A DNA stretch of 64,000 nucleotides from a virus (UHGV-0306641); one strand, 5' to 3'; positions 5,649 through 29,369 are shown, numbered from the stretch's first letter. The notes: generated by a model not told the origin, from the letters alone. Made by a program: numbers and translations.

Positions 5649-5799
5649 AGTTTTCTAACAGAAAAATACCTTGCTTTAAATATATTAAAGCCTTAGATTT
5701 TAATGGAGCAAAAGAAAGGCCCGGCTATGCCGGGCCTCACATTCACCTGTAGGTTTTCGCCGTCAAACTTAGGCCTACAGAGAACAACAGGACTATATC

Positions 5800-5967
5800 A
5801 TGAAAACATACGCGCAACGCGATTTTGTAAACCATCCTCAGCTTTCTGCGAAAAAAAACGATGTTTCCTCTCTGGAAAAGACCCTCATCGTATGGGGATC
5901 TCTGCTTCTTTCAACCTTCGGCGCGGCTTGGATTCTGAGTCTTATCTACCAATTCGCGATCCGTTGA
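5800..5967 (+). CDS. small membrane protein candidate (55 aa), not in supplied ORF track
   Basis: ATG with AGGA RBS; single predicted TM helix IVWGSLLLSTFGAAWILSLIYQF; ORF below the 60-aa track cutoff. Confidence 0.3.
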   Translation: MKTYAQRDFVNHPQLSAKKNDVSSLEKTLIVWGSLLLSTFGAAWILSLIYQFAIR

Positions 5968-6042
5968 ACAACCTCACCTAAGCCCACACAAAAACCGAAT
6001 AATATCATCGGGTTTTGTATTCTATTCGGCGTTTACATAGCT

Positions 6043-6081
6043 AACAGCCATAAGCTTGGCTGTTGCTATTGTGTTTTTTTT
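6043..6081 (+). terminator. weak hairpin plus distal T-run
   Basis: AACAGCCA/TGGCTGTT 8-bp stem, T8 run 9 nt downstream. Confidence 0.3.
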
Positions 6082-6176
6082 GAAACGCCGTGAGAATAAA
6101 TGTAATCATTCATTATCTCTTAGATAGATTGATATCTTTCGGGGTGTGATACTTCATTAAGCTTCATGGAAAGGGT

Positions 6177-6734
6177 ATGCGATTTTCATCGGAATGGCTT
6201 GAAGGATACAAAAAGAAGCGTCCAGTTCGCGCCGCCTCTTCTAACTCAGACTGGTTAAAAACAGTCGTTAAGGTTTCAGTTCATGCAGCGGCACTCGCGG
6301 CCCTGATAAAAAAACCAGAACTGCTTAAAGGCAACCAGGAACACTACGACCAAGTACAGATTTTTGATCGCATAGAACGGAAACACCCCGATCTCTACTC
6401 ACTTCTTCACGCGACCCCGAACGGCGGATATCGCACCAAAAAAAGCGCGGCGCAAATGCCAGCTGAAGGACAGAAAAAAGGCTATCCAGATATGTCTCTT
6501 GATAAGCCAGCCGGTATTTATCATGGGATGCGAGTAGAGCTTAAACATGGGAAGAAAAAGCCAACCAAAGAGCAGATTGAATGGCTCAATTTGCTGACAG
6601 ATCAAGGCTACTACTGCATCCTGGCATTTACACCGGATGAAGCCGTTGCAGAGTTGGTGGCTTACTCACAGCTTGCTGCCGGTGAGTCGATGCCAGAGCA
6701 CCAAAATAACAGCTACTGGAGGGCGGCGGCTTAA
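6177..6734 (+). CDS. VRR-NUC domain nuclease (PD-(D/E)xK fold)
   Basis: GYPDMSLDKPAGIYHGMRVELKHGKKKPTKEQIEWL matches VRR-NUC signature (D...ExK, Q..W). Confidence 0.7.
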   Translation: MRFSSEWLEGYKKKRPVRAASSNSDWLKTVVKVSVHAAALAALIKKPELLKGNQEHYDQVQIFDRIERKHPDLYSLLHATPNGGYRTKKSAAQMPAEGQKKGYPDMSLDKPAGIYHGMRVELKHGKKKPTKEQIEWLNLLTDQGYYCILAFTPDEAVAELVAYSQLAAGESMPEHQNNSYWRAAA

Positions 6735-6744
6735 ACGTAAGGCG

Positions 6745-7032
6745 ATGATAGTGAAGTCAGAAGTTGTGCTGGTGGCTTGTTGCCAGCGGTGTTTATTACA
6801 TAGCATGGTAGAGGATCGGGGTTACATGGACATTAATGACGTATACAACACACTCGAAAATAACCCCGAAATGATAGGCCAACGGGAAGGATCTGCCGAT
6901 TTTGTAACGTTTGAGCCAAGTGAAGCTGGGGAAGGGGGAATGTTTGTAGTCAATGATATGAATGGGGGGATGGCTCCTTTTGAACCATCTTTAGATGACC
7001 TACTTGCTGATAACTGGATGTGTCATGCGTAA
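6745..7032 (+). CDS. hypothetical protein (95 aa)
   Basis: ORF starting at internal ATG after upstream stop; start uncertain. Confidence 0.4.
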   Translation: MIVKSEVVLVACCQRCLLHSMVEDRGYMDINDVYNTLENNPEMIGQREGSADFVTFEPSEAGEGGMFVVNDMNGGMAPFEPSLDDLLADNWMCHA

Positions 7033-7318
7033 ACACTACTACAACCTGTCATTTGTCGGAGAAAAGGGGCATTTCAGGAGCGCGGTGCTCGCATTGGATC
7101 ATAATACTGTGACCATACCTGATATCAGTTTAGCCAAACAGTCGTTGGACATGGACGATTCGACCGGACTGATATCAGTTAGCTATCTTGGCCTCATGAC
7201 AGAGCATGAATACTTCCATGGGCTGGGGAAATCGAAGGTATGGCGTCGGTGGCTAAACGTCGCGGCATGGTTTGTACCGTTCCTGGTATTGGCACTGGTG
7301 CTATTACAACAGCGATAA
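7025..7318 (+). CDS. small protein with C-terminal TM helix (alt start 6995)
   Basis: hydrophobic C-terminus WLNVAAWFVPFLVLALVLL; followed by terminator. Confidence 0.4.
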   Translation: MRKHYYNLSFVGEKGHFRSAVLALDHNTVTIPDISLAKQSLDMDDSTGLISVSYLGLMTEHEYFHGLGKSKVWRRWLNVAAWFVPFLVLALVLLQQR

Positions 7319-7327
7319 GCGCATTAA

Positions 7328-7351
7328 GGGCTGCAGTGCGGCCCTTTTTTG
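7328..7351 (+). terminator. Rho-independent terminator
   Basis: GGGCTGC-agt-GCGGCCC stem then T7. Confidence 0.6.
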
Positions 7352-7430
7352 TGTTCGTTATTAATAGACTATTAGGAAATTACAGATTATTATTTGCCTT
7401 GTTAATACCATAAAATCTAACAAGGAATAT

Positions 7431-8741
7431 TTGAATATAATGTCTAATGCCGCAGAACAACTCACCACTCCTACCCGCATCACCGATGAGGTACTTCACC
7501 TGTCCTTTGTCGGCGTCTATAACCAGCTGAATCTGACATTACGCCGTATCAGCGGCGACGACCTCGACCGGCGCGCGTTGGAAACCAGCATCAGCATGAT
7601 CGAGCAGTTGCAGAGTGACGTTAACACGCGTCTGGATGATGAAACCAACGACTGTAACGCCCTTATTGAACAGCTTGAGGCAACGAAAAACCAGCTACTG
7701 GGGATGAACCTGTACAAAGTAGAGGTACAGGAAGAGGCGCTGGCTAAAGAAGACGAGCTGGAGGGGTTACGTCATGACGCCAAAATGAAGGCGCTTGAGC
7801 TGGAAAACGCAATTATTAATTTAAAGAGCCAGATTGAGTCATCAGCACAGGAATTAACAACGATGCAGCTGGCCTACAATTCATTGAAAGCGTCCTTTGA
7901 TACCTATAAGCGCTTACATCCAGAATCCATTCTCCGTGAGCGTGACGATCTGACAAAGCAAGTCTCCAGGTTGCGAGCAGAGCGCAAAGAAACAAATAAG
8001 AGACTTCAAACCATGCAGAGTAAGCTGAATATTGCCGACAAGGAAGTTGCTGCAGCCCGTTCTAGCCTGATCACCAAGCGTCAGGATATGGACCGGCTTC
8101 ATGCTTTGCATGAGAACCTGAAAAAGCGGGTGGATTTTCACGACGGTCGCGAACAAGTGAAGCTGCATACAGTTGTTACTGAGCAAGGGACTGAGCTTAA
8201 CCTGTATATCTACAACTTCCACTTTGGCCTTTTGGCGCGCAATAGCTACATAAAGGGGCATGTTATTGAACTGGCTGATTTTCATTTCCAGATCCGTACA
8301 GCCATGATGGTTGCGATGGACGTGGTGCCTGGTGTGTGGGGAAACCCTATCTACGAACGTCTGAGCGTATTTAAAAATGCTTGGGATTCTGCGATAGACG
8401 AAGAATTACATCAGCGGATCATGGTCCGGTTAGAAATGGACTTCCCGAAAATCCACAAGCGCGCACTGGATGCCATCGCAGCTGGCATTGACGAACTGAC
8501 ATTACCGGCAAAGGTGCTCTCAATCCTGAAAGGTGCTGGATTTAAGAACGTGCAGGCCATAGCGTCCGTACTACCGTTTGAGCTGGTGGATATTAAGGGG
8601 ATTGGAGAACAGACAGCGACGGAAATCACTAACGCGATAAATAGCTGGGCTATTCGCTGGTCGCGCGAGAATTGCGACATTGAGGCATACAAATCGAATG
8701 TGATCAGCAGCGCTAAACCAGCAAAAAGTAAGAGAAAATAA
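7431..8741 (+). CDS. coiled-coil protein with C-terminal helix-hairpin-helix motif (436 aa; TTG at 7431 or ATG at 7440)
   Basis: long heptad-rich N-terminus; C-terminal LVDIKGIGEQTATEI HhH-like motif. Confidence 0.65.
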   Translation: MNIMSNAAEQLTTPTRITDEVLHLSFVGVYNQLNLTLRRISGDDLDRRALETSISMIEQLQSDVNTRLDDETNDCNALIEQLEATKNQLLGMNLYKVEVQEEALAKEDELEGLRHDAKMKALELENAIINLKSQIESSAQELTTMQLAYNSLKASFDTYKRLHPESILRERDDLTKQVSRLRAERKETNKRLQTMQSKLNIADKEVAAARSSLITKRQDMDRLHALHENLKKRVDFHDGREQVKLHTVVTEQGTELNLYIYNFHFGLLARNSYIKGHVIELADFHFQIRTAMMVAMDVVPGVWGNPIYERLSVFKNAWDSAIDEELHQRIMVRLEMDFPKIHKRALDAIAAGIDELTLPAKVLSILKGAGFKNVQAIASVLPFELVDIKGIGEQTATEITNAINSWAIRWSRENCDIEAYKSNVISSAKPAKSKRK

Positions 8742-8833
8742 ATTAAAACCTTAGAATTACATTGATAAAGATTGGAGCAGTACGTAAAGTACGAGCGCGA
8801 CATTACGACATTTAACTAATTCCTTTTGCATGC

Positions 8834-8864
8834 AGGGCTGACCTTTTAATCAGCCCTTTTTTTT
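8834..8864 (+). terminator. Rho-independent terminator
   Basis: AGGGCTGA/TCAGCCCT 8-bp stem followed by T8. Confidence 0.75.
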
Positions 8865-8974
8865 ATTCTTTTTTCTCCAAAACGTATCAGGCGCGCTCAA
8901 AATTTGAGGTGACGTGATTACCTATACTTATATTTTCCTTAGAATTATGGGTAATGTTAAGCGGAGGAAATGGA

Positions 8975-9385
8975 ATGTCTGAACGTATAACCAGTGTCGA
9001 AGTTGCTGCAGTTATGCTGAAGTGCGGTCGTTACATGACGATTTCTGAAATCATGGCGGCACTCACCGAAGCCTATCCCGATCTTGAGAACGGGCATACA
9101 TCAGTCACGAACATCGTGCGCACCTTCATGAAATCACCGTCTGCCAGCTGCTTCTCTTTCCCCGGCGCGTATCCTCGCATGTATCTGCTTACTTCGGTTT
9201 CAGGCTATCTATTCAAGATCAGAGGTAACAGGCATGTATGCTACGACGATTTGCCGTTTCATAGCGGGAGTAAAAAGGATCAGGAAATAGAGAATAAAAA
9301 AAGCCAGGAGGTTTCCCGGCTGGCCTTTAATTTATTTAACAGCATTTGTCGTGAGCGGATCGCATCAGGTATTACTATCGTCTGA
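8975..9385 (+). CDS. hypothetical protein (136 aa)
   Basis: GGAGGA RBS 6 nt upstream of ATG. Confidence 0.6.
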   Translation: MSERITSVEVAAVMLKCGRYMTISEIMAALTEAYPDLENGHTSVTNIVRTFMKSPSASCFSFPGAYPRMYLLTSVSGYLFKIRGNRHVCYDDLPFHSGSKKDQEIENKKSQEVSRLAFNLFNSICRERIASGITIV

Positions 9386-11197: not shown

Positions 11198-12427
11198 ATG
11201 GCAAAGATTGACTGGGATTGGCACAGGGAAAATTATAAAAAACATAAACTTGAGTCAGGTGTGACTTACAAGGAGTATGCCGAATACCATTCCTTAAACC
11301 CGAATACCGCACGCCGCGAACTGAGTAAAAAGGTGGGTGATGAGGGGCAGGCACCCACGGTCCCGTCGCGTGATCAGGATGATGATCTAACCATCAGGAG
11401 AAAGGGGAGAAAACTCAAGCATAGCAGTGCCTTAGAGGAAATTACCGGGCAGGGTGAACCCGGCGAAACACGCGCAGGCACGAAAAATAAAAAAAATAAT
11501 TCCAAAGGCACACGCGCCAAAATGATCAAACCAGTGCATGAGGGGGAAGTGATCCCACATGTACCGAAACAACGAGGTAAGGGTAAGCAATTCGAAACCG
11601 GCAACGAGGTGAATGTTGTCGCGAATACCAGAGGAAAGCCACGCGAGGTTGATCGTGATGCTGCTGTCTCATTGTTGGAAGCTGGCCTGGAAGAATGCGA
11701 GGCATCCACAGTTAAAACAGCTGTCGAGCATATGCAGCTGTTGTCGCGAACCACAGCCAGGGCAGTAGAGCTATTCGAAACTGAAATAGCCAATATGAAT
11801 ATCCCACGAGAAAAGGGTGACAAGGATGGTGATGACGATGCTCCGTCCGGGCCACACCCGCTGTTAAAGCTGACAAAACTCCTGATTGAAGTCGGCTACA
11901 GGATGGATGACCACGCTACCCGTATCAGTTCTATCCGTTCCTCACGAGAAAAGCTCAAGATTGACCGTGAAAAGCTGGGCGCAAAAGCGACCGAAGCACA
12001 GGTTATTGCCACCGCCTACCAGCTGCGTGATGAAAACGACTGGGATATAGCAGAAACCGCTGAGTACATCGAGCGTCATGGGGTAAAACTGCCGGATTCA
12101 ATCGCCTTGAGGCTGGCTAAGGAGATCAAGGAAGCAGAACCGCCAGTTAGTGACGTCAACGCTGTAGATGATGACCAACTGGAAGAAGAGGCCCGTAAAT
12201 ATCGTGAAGCGCAGGCCGGTAAAGAAGCCTTCCTGAAAGAGCGCCGGGAAACTATCGCCAGGATTGTAGACGAGGGCGGGTATGGCGATACGAACCATGA
12301 CGGTATCAGGCGCGAAGGGGAGCTAGACCCGGATGAAGAGGGCTTAGATCTCGATTACGAAGCGACCCGCGAGTTATACGGCGAAGGCGATGAGATCGCG
12401 ATAGCGCCCCCGGATGAGGACGAATAA
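11198..12427 (+). CDS. pacA: terminase small subunit PacA homolog
   Basis: N-terminus DWDWHRENY...SLNPNTARR and C-terminus IARIVDEGGYGD plus acidic tail align with P1 PacA (from memory); stop overlaps pacB start (TAATG). Confidence 0.8.
   Translation: MAKIDWDWHRENYKKHKLESGVTYKEYAEYHSLNPNTARRELSKKVGDEGQAPTVPSRDQDDDLTIRRKGRKLKHSSALEEITGQGEPGETRAGTKNKKNNSKGTRAKMIKPVHEGEVIPHVPKQRGKGKQFETGNEVNVVANTRGKPREVDRDAAVSLLEAGLEECEASTVKTAVEHMQLLSRTTARAVELFETEIANMNIPREKGDKDGDDDAPSGPHPLLKLTKLLIEVGYRMDDHATRISSIRSSREKLKIDREKLGAKATEAQVIATAYQLRDENDWDIAETAEYIERHGVKLPDSIALRLAKEIKEAEPPVSDVNAVDDDQLEEEARKYREAQAGKEAFLKERRETIARIVDEGGYGDTNHDGIRREGELDPDEEGLDLDYEATRELYGEGDEIAIAPPDEDE
11372..11655 (+). repeat. scattered TGATC(A/G/C/T) hexamers inside 5' part of pacA, at the position homologous to P1 pac
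   Basis: TGATCA 11372, TGATCT 11384, TGATCA 11523, TGATCC 11550, TGATCG 11650; the SRDQDDD coding segment aligns with the P1 PacA segment that encodes pac. Confidence 0.4.
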
Positions 12428-13938
12428 TGGCATCCGGGAAGAAGAAAATTAAATGTGTAACCTCTGATCCGCGCTGGCGTGAAATGGCTATCCGCTATCG
12501 CCATGACTGGGGGTTAGCGGTCGTTGAATTGTTCGGAATGCAACCGAGCTGGCAGCAGGATGAAATACTGCAGTCTGTCCAGCAGATAAAGAGCATGACA
12601 ACCGTTACTTCGGGGCATGGTACTGGTAAGTCATCCCTGACAGCCATGATGCTGATGATTTACATGATCCTGTACCCGGATGCGCGCGTCGTCATCATCG
12701 CGAACAAGATTGCGCAGGTAAAATCCGGCGTATTCAAGTACGTGAAAACCTTTTGGGCCAACGCCGTAAAACGTCATCCGTGGCTGCAGAACCACTTTGT
12801 TTTAACCGACACCATGTTTTATGAGAGAAGCCGGAAAGGGGTGTGGGAAGTTCTCTGTAAAGGCTATCGTCTGGGTAATGAGGAAGGGCTGGCAGGGGAA
12901 CACTCCAAACACTTACTGATCATCTTGGATGAGGCGTCCGGTATCTCTGATAAGGCGATCGGCATCCTGACCGGTGCGCTGACGGAAGCTGATAACCGCA
13001 TGCTTATGCTGTCCCAGCCAACGCGCCCGTCTGGTTACTTCTACGACTCTCACCACAGCCTGGCGAAGACTGAACATAACCCTAAAGGGATCTGGACGTC
13101 GATTGTCCTCAACTCTGAGGAATCACCGTTTGTAACAGACGACTTTATTGTCATGAAGCTGGCGGAATATGGCGGTCGTGACAGCATGGAATACAAAATC
13201 AAGGTACTGGGCCAGTTCCCGTCCGTGATTGATGGCTTCCTGTTGGGCCGCGATGCCTGTGAGCGCGCCCAGCGTCGTAAAGTGTACCTTGAGAAAAACT
13301 GGGGCTGGGTGGCGCTGGCTGACGTTGGGAACGGTCGTGACAAATCCGTCCTGAACATTATGAAGGTAAGCGGCTATCGTGAGAAACGTCGGTTCGTTCC
13401 GTTCGTTGTGCTTGAAATGCCGGGTACCATGAACCCTACAGAGTTCGGTGACTTTATTGCGAACGAATGTACTCAGGAGCGGTTCCCCAATATCACTATA
13501 GGCGTGGATAGTGACGGCGTAGGCTCAGCTACTGCCGATCAGCTGGAGCGCAGGGGGGTTAACGTTGTCCGTATCCGCTGGGGTAAACCTATGTTCGCCA
13601 AAACAGATAAGGACCGATTCGTAAGCCAGAGAGCCTATGCCAACATCGCAGCTCGTGACGCCATACAGACGGGACGTATGAGGCTGGACTCATCGCCAAA
13701 GACAGCAGAACAGGCTTCAAAGATACCTTGGAAGATAAACGAAGATGGGCGTGTGGCGATGATGAAAAAGGATTACATGCGGCAGAAGATGAATATCAAG
13801 TCGCCAGACCGTTGGGATACGTACTGTTTTTCAACGCTTATATCGTATCGCCCTGCAAATGATGACCTGGGTGGAGACATGGAAGAAACCCGCGCAGATG
13901 CACTGGCAGAACTGTCGAAATATGACGATGTGATTTAA
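12427..13938 (+). CDS. pacB: terminase large subunit PacB homolog
   Basis: Walker A SGHGTGKS, Walker B LLIILDEASG, C-terminal nuclease-like region; immediately follows pacA. Confidence 0.85.
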   Translation: MASGKKKIKCVTSDPRWREMAIRYRHDWGLAVVELFGMQPSWQQDEILQSVQQIKSMTTVTSGHGTGKSSLTAMMLMIYMILYPDARVVIIANKIAQVKSGVFKYVKTFWANAVKRHPWLQNHFVLTDTMFYERSRKGVWEVLCKGYRLGNEEGLAGEHSKHLLIILDEASGISDKAIGILTGALTEADNRMLMLSQPTRPSGYFYDSHHSLAKTEHNPKGIWTSIVLNSEESPFVTDDFIVMKLAEYGGRDSMEYKIKVLGQFPSVIDGFLLGRDACERAQRRKVYLEKNWGWVALADVGNGRDKSVLNIMKVSGYREKRRFVPFVVLEMPGTMNPTEFGDFIANECTQERFPNITIGVDSDGVGSATADQLERRGVNVVRIRWGKPMFAKTDKDRFVSQRAYANIAARDAIQTGRMRLDSSPKTAEQASKIPWKINEDGRVAMMKKDYMRQKMNIKSPDRWDTYCFSTLISYRPANDDLGGDMEETRADALAELSKYDDVI

Positions 13939-13968: not shown

Positions 13969-15003
13969 TCAATCTTTCTTAGTCAGGATGTTAAAATTCT
14001 TACCGCGACGGCTGCGTGTATCTCCAAACATAGAACGCAGCTCTGAGATAGTAAGAATATTGTTATTGTCGGTCGCAAACTTCCTTTCAAGTAATTTACG
14101 GTCCTCTTCTGTAAGCAATTCAAGCTTACGCCTACCCGCCTCTATTGAGCGGTTAGCTTTTTCTATTTCAGCCTCTGTTTTTGCCTTTGCCAGCTTAGTT
14201 TTAGCCCGTCTTTCAAAGTGGGTAATACGGCTTAAAATTGATTGCTCAACGATAGTTTTTTGCGCAGCTTTGGCCTCTGCAATCTCTATTTGGTCAATGC
14301 CGTAAATATCCCCAACCGTAAATATTGAGCACTTCAATGGTTTTATAAGACTATACTTATTGAAATATTCTGTTTTAGGCTCAGTTGATATTTTAATGTC
14401 GTCCTTTGTCCATTGCGGGTGATAAATCATGACGCCATGAGTCCCGCAACGTGCGCGCGTACTCTCATTTTCACCTTTAAAAACAACATCTAAGACAGTA
14501 TCCTGATACCCACTGACACGGTATCGGAACTTGTGTCCTTCGGGGTATGCTTCAAATGTTTCCATTTCCTCAGTGAGCGCTTTAACGGCTTCATTTGTAT
14601 GAGGAAACTTTCTAAGTTTCTTTATTTGCTTTTCATATCTATTAAGCAAATCCTCGCGTGTATGAGTGCATGTTGTTGCAGCATTAAAAAAACCAATAGC
14701 TACGGACACTGGTTCAATTATTAACATTGGAACCGGTGAATATATAGCTGTCGATATGGCTATGCTTTTGTTTTTCTTCATCTCAGTAGCAAGTTCAGCA
14801 AACTTTTTCCACCGAATTTGTAAATCAACAGCTTTATTAAAAATAGCCTCATCGTTTGAAAATGCGATAGGACGAATCTTCTCGTCTTTGGCATTTCTGC
14901 TGTGACAGATGGCGAGTGAATCAACCAGTTGCATCCAGTCTTTTTTGGTCTGCAAAAACAACTTGTACTGCTGCTCAAACATCACGTCATTAAACGCTGG
15001 CAT
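13969..15003 (-). CDS. c1: C1-type immunity repressor homolog (divergent from P1 C1)
   Basis: FEQQYKLF, IRPIAFSNDEAI, IYSPVPML, AYPEGHKFRYRVSGYQDTVLDV align with P1 C1 segments (from memory); sits between pacB and lox-cre as in P1. Confidence 0.75.
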   Translation of the reverse strand: MPAFNDVMFEQQYKLFLQTKKDWMQLVDSLAICHSRNAKDEKIRPIAFSNDEAIFNKAVDLQIRWKKFAELATEMKKNKSIAISTAIYSPVPMLIIEPVSVAIGFFNAATTCTHTREDLLNRYEKQIKKLRKFPHTNEAVKALTEEMETFEAYPEGHKFRYRVSGYQDTVLDVVFKGENESTRARCGTHGVMIYHPQWTKDDIKISTEPKTEYFNKYSLIKPLKCSIFTVGDIYGIDQIEIAEAKAAQKTIVEQSILSRITHFERRAKTKLAKAKTEAEIEKANRSIEAGRRKLELLTEEDRKLLERKFATDNNNILTISELRSMFGDTRSRRGKNFNILTKKD

Positions 15004-15105
15004 TGTGTGATTGTCCTTTTGGTTGTACTAACACGTTCTTACCCACTTGCTACCCACATTGAAAGTAATCAACGAACACGATAAAGCCTTAGAAAGACAG
15101 CGATC

Positions 15106-15234: not shown

Positions 15235-15349
15235 CCTGAGTTAGCTCATTCATGTGGCCTGTCATGAGTACATACTAAAGCAAACCTTTCCCTTTATATA
15301 TACTTTTGATTCTAAGCTCACTCACGTTTCAACCAAAATAGGCAAAAAA

Positions 15350-15383
15350 ATAACTATAGATAATGGGGGTTATATAAAGTTAC
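15350..15383. other. lox-like recombination site candidate (13-8-13)
   Basis: ATAACTATAGATA-ATGGGGGT-TATATAAAGTTAC; outer arms ATAACT/AAGTTA match loxP; 10/13 arm symmetry; 177 bp upstream of cre. Confidence 0.5.
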
Positions 15384-15559
15384 GTGCTATGATCAGCTCA
15401 ACGGGTTATCTTGGTGATCATTTTAGAGGCCTGTGAAAGATTGGGACCATTGGCGTTGCTGGTGGCCTTATTTTTTACGTAGCACGTCGTTTCTTAGAAA
15501 GTATGTATTTTGAATGAGGACGTTTTACACGGTTCTCGCGTTATCAAGGAGGTCATAAC

Positions 15560-16585
15560 TTGAACTATCCGAATATTATCAACATGAATTCGAGTTTTCC
15601 CGAGCTTACGGGGATCACTCCAGAGGAAGTTGCACAGAATCTACGCAAATTCATGGCGGATAAAGAGGCATATTCTGAAAATACGTTCAAAAAACTAACA
15701 TCGGTTGTCCGGGCGTGGGCTGTGTGGTGCCAGAAAAATCAGATCGCACCGCTGCCGATTATGCCCGATTGCGCCAGAGCTTATTTTCTGGAACTACATG
15801 AAGCCGGTGTTGCATCCACCAGCATCACCAATCATTTTGCGATGCTTAACATGTTGGCCCGAATTTGTGGGCTTCCTGATCTGAAAAACTGTACAGAAGT
15901 GCAGCTGGCGATGAAGAAAATTCGCCGCCAGTCCGTTCTTGGCGGAGAAAAGACCGGGCAGGCCGTCCCGTTCCGGCTCGCCGACCTGCAGTTAGCCAGC
16001 CATATTTTGTCCCAGTCCGACCGGCTTGCCGATTTGCGCAACCTCGCTTTTCTGTACGTAGCCTATAACTCCCTTCTTCGAATACAGGAGATCGCCCGAA
16101 TCCGGGTAAAAGACTTATCCGTTAACGATGAGCGGATAATCATGGATATTTCTCACACGAAAACAGTCGTGACCGCCGCAGGCGTCATCAAACATCTGAG
16201 TGTTCCAGCCAGTAATATGTTGAAAAAATGGCTAAATACTTCAGAGCTGATCAGCCATCCCGACGCGGTTGTGTTTTGTCGTGTATTTAAAAATGATCGG
16301 GTACAGATATCCGAAACACCGATGACGACACCTTCACTGGAAAAAATATTCCAAGATACCTGGCGGCTGCTGGGCAGACCATCACAAACCACCAACAAAG
16401 GAAGGTATGAAATGTGGTCTGGACATAGCGCCCGAGTCGGAGCTGCACAAGATATGGCTGAGCGCGGAGTGAGTATGGCGCAGATAATGCACGAAGGAAC
16501 ATGGTCAAAACCGGAGACAGTAATGCGCTATTTACGACGCCTGAAGAACGAAAACAGCGCCATGAGTGACATAATGGAAAGGTAG
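15560..16585 (+). CDS. cre: Cre-type tyrosine recombinase (TTG start, AAGGAGG RBS)
   Basis: extensive identity with P1 Cre: NLAFLYVAYNSLLRIQEIARIRVKDLS, WSGHSARVGAAQDMAERGVS, catalytic R/H/R/Y context. Confidence 0.9.
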   Translation: MNYPNIINMNSSFPELTGITPEEVAQNLRKFMADKEAYSENTFKKLTSVVRAWAVWCQKNQIAPLPIMPDCARAYFLELHEAGVASTSITNHFAMLNMLARICGLPDLKNCTEVQLAMKKIRRQSVLGGEKTGQAVPFRLADLQLASHILSQSDRLADLRNLAFLYVAYNSLLRIQEIARIRVKDLSVNDERIIMDISHTKTVVTAAGVIKHLSVPASNMLKKWLNTSELISHPDAVVFCRVFKNDRVQISETPMTTPSLEKIFQDTWRLLGRPSQTTNKGRYEMWSGHSARVGAAQDMAERGVSMAQIMHEGTWSKPETVMRYLRRLKNENSAMSDIMER

Positions 16586-16666
16586 ATACGCATCATTCTA
16601 AGGCTTTAATTTGTTGTAACGTGACTATTATTAGGACAAAATCGGACACGCGCCAAAGGAGGTGTT

Positions 16667-19186: not shown

Positions 19187-19617
19187 CACCCTTCGGCATC
19201 TTCCGCTAACAATTCAAGCATTGACGGTTTAGGGTTATCAGCCACGATCTGAGTTGGTGAGCTGCAGGCGTCTACTTCCGCCTCTTTTCGAGGCTTGCTG
19301 TCAGCATTCAACCACTGATGGATTAGCGCTGGCATCTGGCCCTTCGTTAAGTCGGGTTTAAACCATAAGCTGTAAGCCGTCCGGGAGCCACCAGCAGCTG
19401 CATATTCTGCGAAATTGACAATGTAGCCCTCTACCCCCTTCTTAAACTCAACGTCATCCATTTTATTACCATTTAACGCAACCATGCCTGAGTCCTGATA
19501 AATGATAACTTTGCGTGTGCCGCAATCGAAATTAAGCGCGCGTAAGCTGGTGGGTTGTCCTACTGTCGGGACAAAAATTAGTAATGCAGAAATTAAAAGC
19601 CATTTTATATTTTTCAT
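19186..19617 (-). CDS. secreted protein with signal peptide (143 aa)
   Basis: N-terminal MKNIKWLLISALLIFVPTVG signal-like; AGGGA RBS. Confidence 0.65.
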   Translation of the reverse strand: MKNIKWLLISALLIFVPTVGQPTSLRALNFDCGTRKVIIYQDSGMVALNGNKMDDVEFKKGVEGYIVNFAEYAAAGGSRTAYSLWFKPDLTKGQMPALIHQWLNADSKPRKEAEVDACSSPTQIVADNPKPSMLELLAEDAEG

Positions 19618-20059
19618 ATTTCCCTACCAGATCAAATAGCAATAAATATGCTTGCCCTCATATCTGGCGAGATAGGTTATAGGACTTTCCGCAATAACAG
19701 TAATTTTTTACGCAATAATCTTTAACGCAACAGCACCTGCCGAGCGCCATGTGACTATCTAATCCGCTCTACGACTTGTCGCACCCTGATTTGACATTGA
19801 ATTCTAAGGATTTACTTTATGTTTACTTGCTAATAACTGAGGGCAGTAAGCATGTTAGGGTAAAAACTCATTTGCTCACCTGCCCCCATGGAAAATAAAA
19901 TAGCAGCACGGTAACAATTACAAACGAGAGGAATATATGAAAATTAAAATCAAGCTTATTATCTTTACTTTCAAAATAAACTTACATATTGAGAGATTAT
20001 GCAATTAAATAAAAATGGGGGATTCGACCAGATGTGTCCTCCCCTATAGTTTCCGTATC

Positions 20060-20557
20060 CTACTTGTAGTAGTAGGCTATATTCATTGCCTTATAGAGTT
20101 CCTTAAATCTTTCTTCTCTATATAACGAAAGCCATTCCGTCCAATTACTTATTACGATCTTCCAGAGTGGTGAATCAAACAATGCAGATTGAGCCGGTAA
20201 TTGCTCTCCTGGTTGGAGGTATACCGCCTCAATCATTCTTACACAGCGTCCAAAATCATCAGGGTCAAGAGGGTAGGCAAATTCCGCCTCACAGCCTCCT
20301 GTCAATATGGATGCCATATATAGACTGCTAGCCCCAACATCATCACTGGCAAGCCATGCCTCCAGCCCTATTCCCTCCTTGCCTACTCCCTTCAGGACTA
20401 CAGCTGGCTTACGAGCGTACTCCGCCACAATTAAGTTCGCCGCTCCTATTATCGTGCTGTAACGGTTATCTGCAGTGAGGCCTGGAATCTGGCGGCACAG
20501 CTCCGTAGAAATGGCATTTATCAAAGCAATCTGATCTATCTGGTAGGTTTCGCTCAT
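20060..20557 (-). CDS. hypothetical protein (165 aa; start at MSETYQ with AGGAAG RBS)
   Basis: internal ATG with good RBS; longer track ORF overlaps upstream gene. Confidence 0.55.
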   Translation of the reverse strand: MSETYQIDQIALINAISTELCRQIPGLTADNRYSTIIGAANLIVAEYARKPAVVLKGVGKEGIGLEAWLASDDVGASSLYMASILTGGCEAEFAYPLDPDDFGRCVRMIEAVYLQPGEQLPAQSALFDSPLWKIVISNWTEWLSLYREERFKELYKAMNIAYYYK

Positions 20558-20579
20558 TGCTGTCTTCCTTGTAATGGAT

Positions 20580-21020
20580 TCAGGCGACCTGGTGGCAGGT
20601 AACGCCCATAGAACGGATAGCGGCGCACACGTCCGGGTTATCATCGAACGCGCACAAAATGTTTTCGGTGCCGATGTTCCTGATCCAGTCACGCTTAATT
20701 TCAGCTGGTGGGCGGTGCTCTTTCTCCCCACGCATAATCAGGCGGTCATAAGGGATCTGGTATCGTGATAACCAAGCAGCTGTTTCCGCATAGGCCACCT
20801 CTCCCCGGCTTGTAAGAATGAAAATCCTGTAATGTCTGCTCAGTGCCACCAGCAACGCGATATTCGCCATGATGGGAGTATCTTTCTCACACGCCAGGCT
20901 AAAACGGTCCCAGTTCGGCGCGTGGCTCATCATGTCCAGGCGAGGAATGAGATCCTCACGGTGGCGGTGGTCAGCCAACGTATTGTCCAGGTCAAACACC
21001 ACGATATCTGCAGTGGTCAC
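20580..21020 (-). CDS. HAD-superfamily phosphatase (nucleotidase-like), GTG start
   Basis: motif I FDLDNTL (DxDxT), AGGAG RBS. Confidence 0.65.
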   Translation of the reverse strand: MTTADIVVFDLDNTLADHRHREDLIPRLDMMSHAPNWDRFSLACEKDTPIMANIALLVALSRHYRIFILTSRGEVAYAETAAWLSRYQIPYDRLIMRGEKEHRPPAEIKRDWIRNIGTENILCAFDDNPDVCAAIRSMGVTCHQVA

Positions 21021-21158
21021 AAAAACACTCCTGTCATTCGTAAGTGAACAATAATAATCAATATGATTCTAAGGTATTTGTATTTATCGAATGGATAAAT
21101 TACAGCATTCCGTTTTATACTCTGAGAATACCATTAAATCTAAGGGTTTTTAAAAGGG

Positions 21159-21833
21159 TTGTTCATGCTTAGTACAGAGGATCGGGATGCACTCTACGAA
21201 AAACAGCGAATCGCAGCGCAACGGCAGCGCGAACGTCAGAAGACCAAGCTGGCTGACCCAGCTTATCGGCAACATCAACAGGAAAAACGGCAGGCGGCAG
21301 CACAACGATCCGCCGAAAAACGATTAGCCCGTATCCGTTCACCGGAGTATCAGGAAGCGCAGCGTGAAAAACAGCGCATTAAGCGACAGGAAACAGCACA
21401 GAAACCACGTACAGCACTTACCGTTACCAAAACCCGTAAAACCTCAACGCGAGGACTGAAAGGCAGAACCCCGACCGCAGACGAACGGCGCGTAATGAAT
21501 GCGTTAGCCAAACTCCCCTGCACCGCTTGCTGGCTGCATAAACACCACCAGCCAATTGTCAGCCTGCATCATGTAAATGGGCGCACTGCAGCTGGCGCGC
21601 ATATGGATGTTTTACCGTTGTGCCGGTGGCATCACCAGGACGCGGCCCCAAAAGCAGATCGCGAGCAATACCCGTGGCTGGTGCCGGTTCATGCCAGCGG
21701 CAATGTTGGCGGAAAGGCCGAATTTACGCGCCTGAACGCCTCCGAAGAAGATTTGCTACTCATGGCCTACGAACAGGCTGGAATAATCAGAGAGGTACAT
21801 GGTGTGCCACTCGTAAAAAGGAACGAACAATAA
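21159..21833 (+). CDS. Ref-like HNH endonuclease with basic disordered N-terminus
   Basis: CTACWLHKHHQ...LHHVNGR...PLCRWHHQ HNH/zinc motif; basic repeat-rich N-terminal 100 aa as in P1 Ref (from memory). Confidence 0.65.
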   Translation: MFMLSTEDRDALYEKQRIAAQRQRERQKTKLADPAYRQHQQEKRQAAAQRSAEKRLARIRSPEYQEAQREKQRIKRQETAQKPRTALTVTKTRKTSTRGLKGRTPTADERRVMNALAKLPCTACWLHKHHQPIVSLHHVNGRTAAGAHMDVLPLCRWHHQDAAPKADREQYPWLVPVHASGNVGGKAEFTRLNASEEDLLLMAYEQAGIIREVHGVPLVKRNEQ

Positions 21834-22621
21834 TGAGAATAAAACATTGCGCCACATCTGATCCACGTTGGGTGGAGCTGGTAGAGAAATATCAGAGTAA
21901 CTGGAATCAAGCGATGATAGACATCTTTGGTATGACACCTACAGATCAGCAAAAACTGGTGATAGAAAGAGCAAGCAAACCGGGTTCACATACAACGGTA
22001 ACAACCCCTAGTGGAATTGGTTGTAAACACCTCATAAGTGCTATTGCCATTCTCCTCGTAATTCTTTATCCCAATGGGCGAGTTATCATCCCATCAATGG
22101 ACGTTGCCGCCACCAAAAGCCAAATAATGAAGTACATGAAGCAACATTGGTATAAAGCGATTCAAAATCATCCATGGCTTGATATTTACTTTGACCTAAC
22201 GAGCAACGGAATCCATGAACGAAGCACCGACCGCCTTTGGTTTAGCAGTTTTAAAAGCGTCAGAAAGTATCCAGAAAGCATAGCTGGTGAATATGCCAAA
22301 CATCTGTTTTTCATTTGCCCTAATGCCAATAGCTTATCCGAAAAGATAATGGGAATTATCAATGCCTCATTGGTTGAAAGGGACAATGGAATACTGCTCA
22401 CAGGAATACCATCAGAACACCGTACTTACTTTTATCATAGCCACCATAGGCTATCAGGGGATCTATATTCAGCGATTCAATTGAGTGCCGAAGATTCTCC
22501 ACTCGTAACGCCGGAATACATAGAGATGAAAAGACGTGAACTTGGAGGACGCGACACAAACGCTTATCGGATGCAGGTCCTGGGCCTTTTCCCAAACGAA
22601 TCATCCACCAGCGATATATAG
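21833..22621 (+). CDS. degenerate paralog of terminase large-subunit N-terminal ATPase domain (mat-position gene)
   Basis: colinear with PacB residues 1-265 (SDPRW, FGM.P..QQ, YP..RV.I, HPWL, HSHH, K..VLG.FP) but Walker A becomes PSGIGCKH and Walker B LFFICPNANS; no nuclease domain; TAATG overlap with the preceding HNH gene. Confidence 0.7.
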   Translation: MRIKHCATSDPRWVELVEKYQSNWNQAMIDIFGMTPTDQQKLVIERASKPGSHTTVTTPSGIGCKHLISAIAILLVILYPNGRVIIPSMDVAATKSQIMKYMKQHWYKAIQNHPWLDIYFDLTSNGIHERSTDRLWFSSFKSVRKYPESIAGEYAKHLFFICPNANSLSEKIMGIINASLVERDNGILLTGIPSEHRTYFYHSHHRLSGDLYSAIQLSAEDSPLVTPEYIEMKRRELGGRDTNAYRMQVLGLFPNESSTSDI

Positions 22622-22903: not shown

Positions 22904-22925
22904 CAAAGTACAAACCGCATAAAAT
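22904..22925 (+). promoter_or_regulatory. conserved 19-bp element CAAAGTACAAACCGCATAA + CATAAA(-10-like), class II late-promoter candidate
   Basis: identical 19-mer also at 52615; CTCGCAGC box follows. Confidence 0.45.
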
Positions 22926-25235: not shown

Positions 25236-25241
25236 TACAAA

Positions 25242-25273
25242 AGCCCCCAACCTTTCGGTCAGGGGGCTATTTT
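25242..25273. terminator. bidirectional terminator
   Basis: AGCCCCC...GGGGGCT stem between convergent genes. Confidence 0.55.
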
Positions 25274-25691
25274 ACGCGTCCATGAATGAGCTTGCCGGAA
25301 TGTTAAAGCGCCGCGCAAGTGCTTTCATGTGATCCAGTGTTAATGAGCGAGTCCCGTTAAGGATACGGCTCACAAGCGATTTCTTACCAATCTCTTCCTC
25401 AAAATCACTCTGAGTCAGTTTGTGCTGGTCCATCAGGACACGCAGCAGGGCCACGCCGCTTGGTAACGCTGCAATACGCTCGTTGAACTCAGCCAACTCT
25501 TCCGCCTCATCTTCATACTGGGAAATTTTCGCAACCAGCATGTCCACCAGCGGATGATCTGGCTCGTGTTCAATCAGGTATTCAACCAGCGTCAGCGCGT
25601 CTTCATAGTCCTTACGAGAGGCATTGCCCCCCAGGAGGGGGACAATGCTAACCAGGCTGTTTGCCGCCTGGAGAGCATCGGTATACATCAT
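25272..25691 (-). CDS. higA: HigA antitoxin (HTH-XRE)
   Basis: near-colinear with E. coli K-12 HigA (VSRILNGTRSLTLDHMKALARRFNI). Confidence 0.9.
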   Translation of the reverse strand: MMYTDALQAANSLVSIVPLLGGNASRKDYEDALTLVEYLIEHEPDHPLVDMLVAKISQYEDEAEELAEFNERIAALPSGVALLRVLMDQHKLTQSDFEEEIGKKSLVSRILNGTRSLTLDHMKALARRFNIPASSFMDA

Positions 25692-25999
25692 TCTTTCGTT
25701 CTCCGGTAAAAATCTGTCAGCTTGTCGTATTCGGCATGTGTGGTTATGTGCTTTATGAAGATTTTCCCACGTTCAAAATCAGCAAAAAACATCACTCTCA
25801 AATTCCCGCCGCCTACATCGATCACCCACCACTTCTCCCGATATTTCATTCTGTCCAGCGAGGCAAATCGCTTCTTCATGTCGTCCGGTGAAGTGTAATT
25901 ATCTTTCTTCAAAGTCCGGTATACGCTTTCAAGTGCCGCTGCCTGATTGGGAAATTGCCTGGTGGCTGTATCGAAGGGAATCCTCGATACAACGTGCAT
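25688..25999 (-). CDS. higB: HigB mRNA interferase toxin
   Basis: FASLDRMKYREKWWVIDVGGGNLRVMFFADFERGKIFIKHITTHAEYD matches HigB; AAGGAG RBS; ATGA overlap with higA. Confidence 0.9.
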   Translation of the reverse strand: MHVVSRIPFDTATRQFPNQAAALESVYRTLKKDNYTSPDDMKKRFASLDRMKYREKWWVIDVGGGNLRVMFFADFERGKIFIKHITTHAEYDKLTDFYRRTKE

Positions 26000-26148
26000 C
26001 CTTATCTCCTTTCGTTTCCATCTTGGAAACATAGTATCTCACTATCCGAATGTTGACAAGATGGATACTAAAATAATTTATGCATCTGCAATTCACAATC
26101 TCCATACAGTGCTCACATCCGCAAATTAACCCGTCAGTGAGGCACAGA

Positions 26149-26910
26149 ATGGGCCGTTTTGATGAATGGCTTAACGACACAAAGCCGGTAACAGTCACAC
26201 CGGTTAGCTCTGCCGTTATCCAGCCAGAGGAAACAACCGAAGTCACCCCACCAGCAATTACCGATATGGATGAGCTGGTGGAGGTGGATATTGCTGCCCC
26301 GCAGCAGCCAGAAGAAACGCTTTTTGATGAGATAGGCTCAACAGAAAGCGCGCCGGTCGCAGCATTGCCAGGTGAACTGGCGACACGCGATCAGGACATA
26401 AGTCTGAAGCCGCGTTTTAAAGGTCACTCCCCGCTCAATTCGATGGTTCGCCTGGACTGGATGAAACTCATTGAACTGCACCCGGATAACTTTGACGCCC
26501 TGCTCTTTCGGCCTGACCCCGAGGATGTGGGCGAAGTTGACGAAGAAAGCGGCATTGAAGGCCCATCCTACACCGAACTGAACAACAATCAGCGTGACCT
26601 ACGCTATCTCGATCCGGTCCCGGTCAAAGTGCTGGATTGTCCTGATGAACGGGACTCATTTCAGGTCGTGGATTCTGACGGCGAACAGGATGGACTGAGT
26701 GACGAGCTTCAGTTACTACGTATAGCCGCAGAAAACGTGTCTATCGGCTCAATACTCACCTGGAATGAGGAAATGGCATCCGGGAAGCTGGCCCAGCGCT
26801 GGTGGTATGTACACCGCATTTACAGCTTTGGTACGCAGCACGTCGGATCGCTGTATTACTGCATTCCTGCACGAAACATGGATACAACTGAGGGAGGGAT
26901 CGTTAAATGA
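26149..26910 (+). CDS. acidic hypothetical protein (254 aa)
   Basis: start at MGRFDEW with GAGG RBS; first gene of plus-strand structural-like operon. Confidence 0.55.
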   Translation: MGRFDEWLNDTKPVTVTPVSSAVIQPEETTEVTPPAITDMDELVEVDIAAPQQPEETLFDEIGSTESAPVAALPGELATRDQDISLKPRFKGHSPLNSMVRLDWMKLIELHPDNFDALLFRPDPEDVGEVDEESGIEGPSYTELNNNQRDLRYLDPVPVKVLDCPDERDSFQVVDSDGEQDGLSDELQLLRIAAENVSIGSILTWNEEMASGKLAQRWWYVHRIYSFGTQHVGSLYYCIPARNMDTTEGGIVK

Positions 26911-27671
26911 GTAGAGAACTTTTAGCCAAAACGCGCCAGTGGAAAAAAACACGTACAGGAAAGTTCGAAATAACCGGATTTTCCGCGATCGATGAAGCTG
27001 TGGCGCGTGAAATTAATATAATTTTCAGCGACGTCGTAGTGACTCACCCCAGCAGGGGCCGTGAGCGGTTTGCAGAGTTCCTGAAGCGTAAGCCGGAAGA
27101 CCGCGTATTCGTGGGCAATTTTGATAACGTGGTTGAGTTTTTGGGCGCGGTTCGTCGCGCAGCTGCCGGACGCCGTAGCATTCCATCCGATAAAATCATT
27201 AACCGCGACGCCATGCCGTTTATCAACATTTCACGGACCTTTGACGCTGACTACGAAAATAACGACAACCAACGTCATCGGCGCGAGGTAGGAGACTTAA
27301 TGGCTGATGATGGCGAAACACCTATCGCTGAGGTGGACGCAATGCAGGTATTGCTAACCTACAACGTTACGTTGATTGCTGCCGAAAAATCTACTCTCAG
27401 CCTGATGTGTAACACCTTAGCGTCATCATTACGCTGGCGCGAATCCACCAGCTTTACGGCTATCGACTATCTGGTTAACGCAAAAACGGAAATTGATTGC
27501 TCCTTCCAGGATGCAAAGGCTATCGGTTACAGCGATTTATCTACGCCGATCACCGAAAACCGGATATTTGCAGCCCAGGCGACGTTAACGGTTATGGCAG
27601 ACATGCTAACCGCGTTCGAAGTTGATGCGAGCGAGGTTCGTATTCATACGTACAGCAGCACTCAGGGTTAG
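26907..27671 (+). CDS. virion/baseplate-module protein (254 aa)
   Basis: ATGA-coupled operon with spike-like gene. Confidence 0.55.
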   Translation: MSRELLAKTRQWKKTRTGKFEITGFSAIDEAVAREINIIFSDVVVTHPSRGRERFAEFLKRKPEDRVFVGNFDNVVEFLGAVRRAAAGRRSIPSDKIINRDAMPFINISRTFDADYENNDNQRHRREVGDLMADDGETPIAEVDAMQVLLTYNVTLIAAEKSTLSLMCNTLASSLRWRESTSFTAIDYLVNAKTEIDCSFQDAKAIGYSDLSTPITENRIFAAQATLTVMADMLTAFEVDASEVRIHTYSSTQG

Positions 27672-27673
27672 TT

Positions 27674-28654
27674 ATGGCTCAGTTACAGCAATACTTTCTT
27701 CAGTCGGCAACGCTTAACGATCAGGTCATCCCCCGAGAATGGATAAATTCGGTTCTCTACATTGAGAAAACAGCGCTTACCGGCCCCCTTCTACGCCTGG
27801 AAGTGAGGGATGCCACGGGTTCTATTGTTGACGAATACAAAGCGGCCTACGGCGCTAAGCTGGTGGTCGAAACGGGCGATCCCACCGGCGACCGCAAGAC
27901 GGTAAAAGAAACCTTTTTCGTTACGTCAGCACCAGCACAGGGTGATGTGGTCCAGATAACGGCGATCCTTGACGCTCTGAAGACAATCAAGACGCCCACC
28001 AGCGCGGCAAAACTGTTTTCAAACAGACAGCCAAGAGACATTCTCAAAGACTTTGCAGGTTCTTTAACCGTTGAGGCTGATACGTTTAAAAAGGCAGGTA
28101 CGTATCACCTAAATATGGGGGAAAAGCCGTCGCTGGTGCTCAGCCAAATAGCTGCCGATCATGGTGCTCTGGTGTGGATAGCGCGCGGTAAGTTTTACGT
28201 GAAAGAAATGGCGCGCTTAATCAAGACAAAAGCGGTGATGGTGTATGAGTCCAATAACCCCTCAGCTCAATACACGATCAGCCGTTCCGAGCATATCAAT
28301 CAGGATTTTGCCGCCACACAGGATAGCCAGTATCGCTTTGTGGGTTACTCAGAAACTGATGGGTATGTCGAAACTGGGGACGCCTCCCTGCCCGTTCGAT
28401 ACGTTTCTGATGCAGATATGTCCACGCTGAAGAACATGCAGCAGGTACTGGTACCGAAATTAGACATTGAGGTATCAGGTAACACAGATATCACTGCAGG
28501 CATGGTGATCGGTATCCAGATCCATCGCTACGACCAGAAAAACCAGGTAGATGAATCCCTCCCGAAAAACTTCATTGTCGAGCGAGTGGCGCATTACGAA
28601 GACCGCATATCGTATATCACGCGCATGATATTAGGAGTGCCATATATTGAGTAA
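27674..28654 (+). CDS. virion/baseplate-module protein (326 aa)
   Basis: operon context. Confidence 0.55.
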   Translation: MAQLQQYFLQSATLNDQVIPREWINSVLYIEKTALTGPLLRLEVRDATGSIVDEYKAAYGAKLVVETGDPTGDRKTVKETFFVTSAPAQGDVVQITAILDALKTIKTPTSAAKLFSNRQPRDILKDFAGSLTVEADTFKKAGTYHLNMGEKPSLVLSQIAADHGALVWIARGKFYVKEMARLIKTKAVMVYESNNPSAQYTISRSEHINQDFAATQDSQYRFVGYSETDGYVETGDASLPVRYVSDADMSTLKNMQQVLVPKLDIEVSGNTDITAGMVIGIQIHRYDQKNQVDESLPKNFIVERVAHYEDRISYITRMILGVPYIE

Positions 28655-29303
28655 GAAAAGAGCTGTCATTGTGGGAACCAAACACCCAGGCGGATTAATG
28701 CGCGCGCAAGTAAGGGTGTTGCCGGATTGGGTTGGCGTACCGGATGAATCGTTACCGTGGGCGGAATACATGATGCCCATAGGCAATGCTTTTACACCAA
28801 CTGTTACCGGCGATCTGGTATGGGTAGAGTTTCCATATACCGATGTACGAGGAAAGCCTGATACGCGACGACCATTGATTGTAGGCGCGGCCTCCGATTC
28901 GCCTGGCGGGGTTCCTAACGTTGCGCCTGAAGCGTCCGGGCAAGGTGCCGCGTGGGAGCCGCCGCCGGTTGATGGTGCGCCAGCGCGCCCACAATTCACA
29001 CCAAGTGAAGATTTTGTTGTGCATCGCAATAACGTTTTTGAGGTTCGTACAGCTGGTGGCGGGTATGAGATAGCCAATACCGCAGCTGGTACGCGCATAG
29101 GCATGAATGAGGCCGGTAAAGCCTACATTATCGGGCCTGGTGATATGGTCTTTGATGCTGGTGGAGACTTCATTGTAAAAGCTGGTGGAAAGATCAGCAT
29201 GGAATCTAAGGATAAAACAGAAATTAAGTCAGGCGCAGCAATGGACCTTACTGCATCTGGCAAGCTGAGCGGCAAAGCTTCTCAAGTTGATTTTTCAAAA
29301 TAA
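28647..29303 (+). CDS. baseplate spike/hub gpV-like protein candidate
   Basis: GDLVWVEFPYTDVRGKPDTRRPLIVGAASDSPGG resembles OB-fold region of P2 gpV/VgrG spikes. Confidence 0.45.
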   Translation: MSKKRAVIVGTKHPGGLMRAQVRVLPDWVGVPDESLPWAEYMMPIGNAFTPTVTGDLVWVEFPYTDVRGKPDTRRPLIVGAASDSPGGVPNVAPEASGQGAAWEPPPVDGAPARPQFTPSEDFVVHRNNVFEVRTAGGGYEIANTAAGTRIGMNEAGKAYIIGPGDMVFDAGGDFIVKAGGKISMESKDKTEIKSGAAMDLTASGKLSGKASQVDFSK

Positions 29304-29369
29304 ATAACATTAATTCTAAGGAACAATGTGATTTAATCTACCTGTCTTTATCAGGTAGGTAATCACAGG

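Follow-up and report, generated by a model that had tools for sequence, protein, structure and literature searches.

The DNA analysed here is a 64,000-nt stretch (hereafter the window) of the virus UHGV-0306641, which has the gene content and gene order of the P1/D6 group of plasmid prophages and whose closest relatives are 84-88-kb plasmids of Citrobacter freundii and C. portucalensis, ~94% identical over the region. Across this window, from 5.7 to 52.6 kb, we describe 11 sites with a shared asymmetric motif that are very likely the operators of the element's own C1-type master repressor. A preliminary description of the same DNA had proposed such an operator regulon, governed by a diverged C1 homologue, and the proposal is supported by the homology of the C1 protein, by the match between the gaps that hold the sites and the corresponding gaps of P1 and D6, and by the covariation of the site core with the clade of C1. 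From these sequence comparisons we infer that C1 is the binder, that it represses by binding, and where the affected promoters lie.

A dispersed motif and its covariation with the C1 repressor

The exact core TTCTAAGG is present in seven copies, compared with 1.47 expected, and none of 100 shuffles of the 64-kb window reached seven, which places the motif above shuffled background. All seven copies are outside open reading frames (ORFs), which leave ~11% of the window non-coding (P ~2e-7), and TTCTAAGG is the sole dispersed word among the top intergenic 8- and 9-mers, where iterons and another clustered repeat rank alike. The earlier statement that every copy is non-coding is nevertheless true for the strict core only, because three of the 13 matches to the looser pattern WTCTAAGS (12342, 29204 and 37431) are inside ORFs. 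The matches at 12342 and 37431 are without the conserved flanks and were rejected as sites.

Nine of the ten sites listed in the preliminary description were recovered by a 21-nt position weight matrix (PWM) with scores of 20.8-28.4, including the copies with the variant core ATCTAAGG at 5691 and 21138, which have the common flanks and score like the others (leave-one-out 15.9-19.5). The shuffle ceiling for such scores was 18.8, taken from Markov shuffles of the window with a closely similar ten-site matrix that still included the listed site at 15310. This tenth site, TTCTAAGC at 15310-15317 (plus strand), was discarded, as its leave-one-out score is 0.7 and its core varies among the relatives, which carry TACCAAGC, TTCTTAGC or T-CTAAGA at this place (alignment A2). 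Two sites that had been missed were added, namely 29198-29218 (15.6) and 52581-52601 (18.9); their scores are within the shuffled range, and both therefore rest on the conservation of their cores in a relative plasmid and not on the score. From 41 non-redundant copies, the clade consensus is approximately a-T-[ac]-[ac]-n-n-t-a-A-T-TCTAAGG-n-T-T-T-a, which is asymmetric and has ~13-14 informative positions, with a strong part, A-T-TCTAAGG-n-T-T-T, and a weaker A-T-[AC]-[AC] ~8 nt upstream. Literature searches with the motif words returned primers only.

The sites are conserved in position and core. Each of the 11 has a collinear counterpart in the 94%-identical plasmid NZ_CP114569, where none of the 88 positions in the 8-bp cores is changed compared with 27 of the 143 flanking positions (13 per 21-mer; Fisher P 1e-6), although this comparison is biased, as the sites of the relative were located with the same PWM. 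In a six-genome alignment (A1), TTTCTAAGG is the longest invariant block of the c1 leader, and it is also found upstream of c1 where C1 is 37-49% identical. In loci with C1 proteins 92, 82, 79 and 59% identical to that of the window, the same gaps hold the word: in the c1 leader ~80 nt before the gene, directly after cre, beside pmgS, and in front of both lpa and ref. In loci with C1 49% and 38% identical, TTCTAAGG is still upstream of c1 and downstream of cre. Intermediate C1 clades have intermediate cores: ATCTAAGG or ATCTAAAG where C1 is 39% identical, TTCTAAGG or TTCTAAAC at 37%, and ATCTAAAY at 33%. These distant clades came from an exhaustive search (54 representatives); a contig scan with a single C1 protein found only one close relative, and a megablast of the region against the phage collection gave no DNA-level match.

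By homology, the ORF at 13969-15003 (minus strand, 344 aa) is a member of the C1 repressor family, matching the C1 of D6 with 29% identity (E 7e-37) and that of P1 with 24% identity (E 3e-11) in BLASTP searches. The precomputed Pfam family PF27008 (Phage_P7_repressor_C1) matches C1 homologues that are 37-82% identical to it, and none of the Pfam models searched here matched the C1 or the small ORFs of the window. The C1 of P1 acts at dispersed asymmetric 17-bp operators, 22 by count, with the consensus ATTGCTCTAATAAATTT (PMC8546580), and the P1 record AF234172 lists C1 operators at ref, mat, ssb(-isaA), c4, kilA-repL, rlf, uhr-hrdC-dmt, ban, 26/pmgL(-pmgM), ppp, pmgR-pmgS (two), pmgT and lpa. 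Consensus matches are also found in the c1/coi region of P1, and the P1/P7 operator set (ImmC) comprises Op2, Op21, Op51, Op53, Op68, Op72, Op82-88, Op94 and Op99.

The likeness in layout to the P1 regulon that had been suggested for this DNA is borne out at the level of individual gaps. The sites of the window precede homologues of c1, lpa, ref, hrdC-dmt, pmgM-pmgS and the isaA-containing operon, and their gaps match those of the P1 operators at c1, lpa, ref, uhr-hrdC-dmt, pmgL/pmgM, pmgR-pmgS and the isaA operon. Common to both elements are the C1 family, the many single, asymmetric and scattered sites and the TCTAA core; the P1 sites are at or next to promoters, and those of the window may be so too, judging from predicted promoters. 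In the operator word, a-A-T-TCTAAGG-n-TTT in the window and ATTGCTCTAATAAATTT in P1, TCTAA alone is shared, as had been noted before, and the P1 consensus, allowing up to three mismatches, has no match in the window compared with 14 in half of P1; C1, if acting here, needs a different site. The kilA-repL, c4-icd-ant and ban targets of P1 were not found in the window.

The comparison with D6 links the change of word to the change of repressor. D6 has the closest gene order (darB-ulx-orf13 ... pmgS-lpa-pacAB-c1-lox-cre), most proteins of the window are nearer to their D6 than to their P1 homologues, and the C1 of D6 (345 aa) has the same long form as the C1 of the window despite being only 29% identical. 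The dispersed word of D6 is agTTTTCTAACA, with 12 copies of TTCTAACA compared with 2.9 expected, and its sites are upstream of c1, ref, hrdC and icd, downstream of cre, around pmgS and pmgR, and in the capsid/orf52 gap; of the eight loci with sites in the window, six or seven have a D6 counterpart. D6 lacks both the P1 word and TTCTAAGG, and D6 and the window show no enrichment for each other's word. Among 84 loci sorted by C1 clade, TTCTAAGG reaches 3.2 copies per 10 kb in the clade of the window only, TTCTAACA 2.2 per 10 kb with D6-like C1 and GCTCTAAT 3.3 per 10 kb with P1-like C1, with far lower and mostly zero counts off-clade, although, with many near-duplicates among these loci, the match amounts to ~3-5 independent clades. 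The bases 3' of the core are GG here, TA in P1 and CA in D6, and the base 5' of TCTAA is T here and C in P1. Together, the matches in core, location and clade are what a repressor covarying with its operator should show, and they support the view that the putative operators of the window correspond to the P1 C1 operator set in a form specific to this clade.

Putative regulation and alternative explanations

In the mechanism that we propose, the C1 homologue would recognise a single asymmetric site of ~14-20 bp, a-A-T-TCTAAGG-n-TTT-a, and the sites would overlap or lie next to the promoters of c1, lpa, ref and hrdC-dmt, and likewise those of three operons (pmgM-pmgS, the one that follows cre, and a long leftward early one) and one promoter at 19.8 kb. 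In a lysogen, bound C1 would keep these units off, as the C1 of P1 does via its dispersed 17-bp operators, and with lpa off, presumably the key regulated gene of the set, the whole late regulon would be off, as in P1. The operator would have been re-specified in this clade, with TCTAA retained and the adjoining bases changed. Plausible sigma-70 hexamers, identified as consensus matches, overlap six or seven of the sites. At 5684, 8930 and 52581, the reversed core contains TAGAAT or TAGATT as a -10, and a -35 at 17 nt completes predicted promoters that would serve the 5.7-kb operon, the leftward early operon at 52.6 kb and possibly lpa.

The leftmost site, ATTAAAATCTAAGGCTTTAAT (5684-5704, minus strand, PWM 25.6), is in front of the operon formed by a 55-aa ORF, pmgM and pmgS; it is unchanged in NZ_CP114569, has an orthologue in the related locus L009, and the -10 of its predicted promoter, TTGCTT-17-TAGATT, is within the reversed core. 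About 25 nt upstream of it, in the same gap, the D6-type word TTTTCTAACA at 5651-5660 may be a second, weaker site. Directly after the stop codon of pmgS is ATGTAATTCTAAGGTTTTAAT (8742-8762, minus strand, PWM 28.4), with orthologues in L008 and L009 and, in NZ_CP114569, a retained core and changed flanks. This site adjoins the -35 of a predicted promoter, TTGATA-17-TAAAGT, after which follows a strong terminator hairpin at 8834-8857; the region 8762-8857 could encode a C1-controlled RNA of ~70 nt, or the hairpin could merely end the pmgS operon. The third site, CCATAATTCTAAGGAAAATAT (8930-8950, minus strand, PWM 22.1), with the -10-like TAGAAT within its core, precedes the lpa start codon (8975) by 25 nt; L007, L008 and L009 carry orthologous sites upstream of lpa, and P1 has Olpa at the equivalent place. 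The site 77 nt upstream of c1, CTGTCTTTCTAAGGCTTTATC (15080-15100, minus strand), probably serves the autoregulation of c1.

On the other side of the c1-cre interval, GCATCATTCTAAGGCTTTAAT (16590-16610, plus strand, PWM 25.1) is between cre and the operon running from an orf117-like to an isaA-like gene. The site is at the same place in every relative, and D6 has TTCTAACA at the matching position (D6 89949). Upstream of cre, by ~60 nt, is a palindrome, TTTCTTAGAAA (TTCTAAGA on the minus strand), at 15490-15500, which is present in five of six relatives and might serve as a weak operator or be bound by another protein. Further to the right, ATTGAATTCTAAGGATTTACT (19796-19816, plus strand) occupies the spacer of a promoter close to consensus, TTGACA(19791)-16-TACTTT, which faces a 440-bp gap with a 23-aa ORF with a good ribosome-binding site at 19937-20008. 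Downstream of this promoter there is no ORF of at least 60 aa and no significant fold (z -0.56), Rfam gave one chance-level match only over 19600-20100, and the transcript would be antisense to the genes at 20060-21020.

Two plus-strand sites at ref bracket a predicted promoter, TGGATA-18-TATACT. The distal one (21061-21081, PWM 23.0), 11 nt upstream of the -35, has its core retained in NZ_CP114569 and is equivalent in place to P1 Oref and to D6 76639, and the proximal one (21132-21152, PWM 21.9) is downstream of the predicted -10 and 7 nt before the ref start codon; L007 and L008 also carry sites at ref. Of the two added sites, CATGGAATCTAAGGATAAAAC at 29198 (plus strand; the loose match at 29204) is inside the 3' end of a gene-5 homologue, and it is probably a real site, since its core is kept in NZ_CP114569 despite four differing flank positions. 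Next to it, CATTAATTCTAAGGAACAATG (29308-29328, plus strand, PWM 20.8) is 42 nt upstream of hrdC-dmt, at a place equivalent to P1 Odmt and D6 64117. The other added site, AATTAAATCTATGGTATTTTT at 52581 (plus strand), is a probable site with a variant core, ATCTATGG, which is kept in NZ_CP114569. The long leftward early operon and the capsid gene diverge from the gap that holds it, in which D6 has TTCTAACA (D6 54210), and on the minus strand the site overlaps a predicted TTAACC-17-TAGATT with the -10 within the core. A common helical phase of paired sites was considered and rejected, the spacings being 188, 71 and 110 bp. Outside the window, a further strong site, CTTTAATTCTAAGGTGTAAAT, is found at 2150-2180 of the related locus L001 (~9831 of NZ_CP114569). 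It follows the head-protease gene and precedes a GATC-rich region and a 305-aa gene, the latter at the position of D6 repL but with no similarity to D6 RepL (E 4.9).

Several points weigh against assigning the sites to C1, in addition to the matrix bias and the near-duplicate loci given above. The promoter calls are consensus matches only, a generic promoter scan of the region was at chance (20 found, 22.7 expected), and no convincing promoter was seen at the c1 or hrdC sites. Of the accessory proteins of the P1 system, no Coi homologue was found, with only unconvincing ORFs of 35-42 aa in the c1-lox interval, and Lxc is present only as a positional analogue, the 89-aa ORF 5379-5648, which occupies the place of lxc after ulx and matches D6 orf13 (E 5e-12), with no detectable similarity to P1 Lxc (E 0.38). 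In P1, Coi is the antirepressor, and lxc, which follows ulx directly, is the corepressor gene. Finally, another protein encoded beside these genes could in principle bind the sites.

Binding by a factor other than C1, be it the protein at the orf13/Lxc position, a Cro-like protein or a host nucleoid protein, is in our view improbable. The sequence does not identify the binder directly, and the core would also track the clade of any regulator co-inherited with c1, but c1, cre and lox are the only regulatory module conserved in all word-bearing loci, and we know of no resemblance of the motif to the consensus sequences of IHF, Fis or LexA. Moreover, the sites are in the same gaps as the P1 operators and have TCTAA in common with the experimentally defined P1 C1 operator (PMC8546580), and nothing in the sequences appears to point to a different co-inherited binder. 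It is highly unlikely that the repeats are copies of a duplicated promoter module, or a product of AT-rich bias, with no dedicated binding protein. Several copies do have a longer common tail, TTCTAAGGCTTTTATTTGTTGTAA, suggesting that some sites spread as a promoter cassette; most, however, are alike over ~14 bp only and have unrelated flanks, the flanks drift around an unchanging core, the word varies together with the repressor clade, and GG sets the core apart from a generic AT-rich promoter spacer.

The motif could also be conceived as the late-promoter element of Lpa, equivalent to the -22 box of P1, given that an Lpa homologue is encoded at 8975-9385 and that no P1-type late box, AAGTGACTT, can be recognised in the window (the pattern is at chance level), so that the late element must look different here. 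We nonetheless regard this as extremely unlikely, as the sites are absent upstream of pacA, mat and the tail operons and precede genes that are C1-controlled in P1, with one in front of lpa itself and one in front of c1, and as they are in mixed orientation relative to the downstream gene, with no fixed spacing to a -10. There is, furthermore, a separate candidate for the late element, the 19-bp exact repeat CAAAGTACAAACCGCATAA, which precedes mat (22904-22922) and the capsid gene (52615-52633). P1 has LPmat and LP23 at these positions, which makes CAAAGTACAAACCGCATAA a candidate Lpa-dependent late promoter of this clade.

Site polarity and the predicted fold of C1

A feature that the preliminary description had not noticed is the strand polarity of the sites around the lox-like site. 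This site, at 15350-15383, consists of 13-bp arms and an 8-bp spacer (ATAACTATAGATA-ATGGGGGT-TATATAAAGTTAC) and belongs to a block between c1 and cre that all relatives have kept (alignment A2). To its left, all four sites are on the minus strand, and to its right, all seven are on the plus strand, so that every site points away from lox. In a count of motif copies, 10 of 10 in the window have this orientation, and across seven loci of the clade, 39 of 41 WTCTAAGG copies, which are not independent of each other, likewise point away from lox. Gene direction is not the explanation, because the 5684, 8742 and 8930 sites oppose their downstream genes. The polarity, strict in the window, is weaker in D6 (~9 of 13) and amounts to a weak trend in P1 (~12 of 18). 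Chi, GCTGGTGG, is present in 67 copies in the 64 kb (41 plus, 26 minus), with a ratio of 11 to 1 left of lox.

The protein itself offers a second feature of this kind. No solved structure matches the C1 family by sequence. An AlphaFold2 model of the C1 of the window, built from a 48-sequence alignment, reached a predicted local distance difference test score (pLDDT) of 92.5 and a predicted template modelling score (pTM) of 0.77, and a Foldseek search of it against the PDB gave four significant matches, all of them Tus-Ter complexes (E 6e-10 to 3e-8). A second AlphaFold model, of a 282-aa protein 53% identical to P1 C1 (pLDDT 90.3), matched the same four Tus-Ter complexes alone (E 4e-9 to 2e-8, template modelling (TM) scores 0.41-0.45). 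These models predict a Tus-like two-domain fold for C1 repressors. It speaks against the likeness that it is one of predicted to solved structures, with TM-scores of 0.35-0.45 overall, and that the profile match between C1 and Tus is weak (hhalign probability 13%, E 0.002, 88 columns), pairing C1 residues 112-199, which include the C1-invariant R160 and R162, with Tus residues 177-265. The Pfam Ter family has no match on the C1 of the window, and no paper linking Tus and C1 was found in the literature searched. A C-terminal extension of ~80 residues (long helices at 236-310 and the remainder, ~236-344), present in the C1 of the window clade and of D6 and absent from P1 C1 (283 aa), could mediate oligomerisation or the binding of a partner.

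Tus binds as a monomer, clamping an asymmetric site of ~23 bp, and a Tus-like fold would account for single, asymmetric operators; the C1 of P1, too, is a monomer on an asymmetric site. In both systems the sites also form two groups of opposed orientation, one on either side of a site for dimer resolution, which is lox here and dif in E. coli. They differ in that no sequence homology is detectable beyond the weak profile match and in that the known role of C1 is transcriptional repression; a coincidental CTAA-G is all that the window site is known to share with Ter sequences. The word GTTGTAAC, which follows the 16590 site, was considered as a Ter core and rejected, being explained more simply as the -35 (TTGTAA) of the promoter that comes next. 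As a speculative and rather unlikely extension, C1-type repressors with a Tus fold and Ter-like polar operators might share an ancestor with the chromosomal Tus-Ter system, the one having been recruited from the other, and bound C1 might, besides occluding promoters, block helicases or RNA polymerase in a manner that depends on the orientation of the site. If this were true, the opposed groups would have the geometry of a replication fork trap, or represent a strictly permissive layout for forks from the plasmid origin.

Neighbouring features and significance

The window opens with darB (21-4892) and ulx, with the 89-aa ORF directly 3' of ulx, followed by pmgS (7431-8741), which has pmgM upstream in the same operon. 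The lpa homologue, a late-promoter activator gene (8975-9385, plus strand), was assigned by PF25716 (BPP1_LPA, E 2e-24) and phrog_1704, and it is followed by parM, pacA and pacB (12427-13938), with which the conserved arrangement pacB-c1-lox-cre begins; cre is at 15560-16585. Further downstream are ref (21159-21833), mat and the tail genes, hrdC (rdgC)-dmt (29370-32601), a rep gene with iterons, the long leftward operon of small genes, and the capsid and sheath genes. Two extra PacB-like ORFs, at 21620-22621 (40% identity over 258 aa) and 42823-43722 (31% over 186 aa), are additional to the real pacB and resemble parts of the large terminase subunit.

The iterons ACCCGCYAGCGTTGA, in eight copies at 36902-36959 and 37621-37993, flank a RepA-like gene (36961-37863) and are oppositely oriented on its two sides; this region (36902-37993) is the plasmid origin and copy control. 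The repeats GTAAATAC form two clusters, the first of which (34146-35020) flanks a parA-like gene (34187-34849) and could be a centromere, and the second of which (59444-59534) is upstream of a pmgB homologue. Rfam, searched at gathering thresholds over the whole window, gave no match.

For the uncharacterised group of Citrobacter plasmid prophages to which the element belongs, the operator map would amount to a map of the immunity regulon. Should the predicted Tus-like fold be true, it would explain why the master repressor of P1 uses single asymmetric sites, and it would give the otherwise isolated Tus its first structural relatives. The comparison of window, P1 and D6 suggests that the C1 family changed its specificity via two or three bases around a fixed TCTAA core, which would make it a simple system for studying the co-evolution of repressor and operator. 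This bears on how P1-like phage-plasmids, which are carriers of resistance genes in Enterobacterales, may become heteroimmune.

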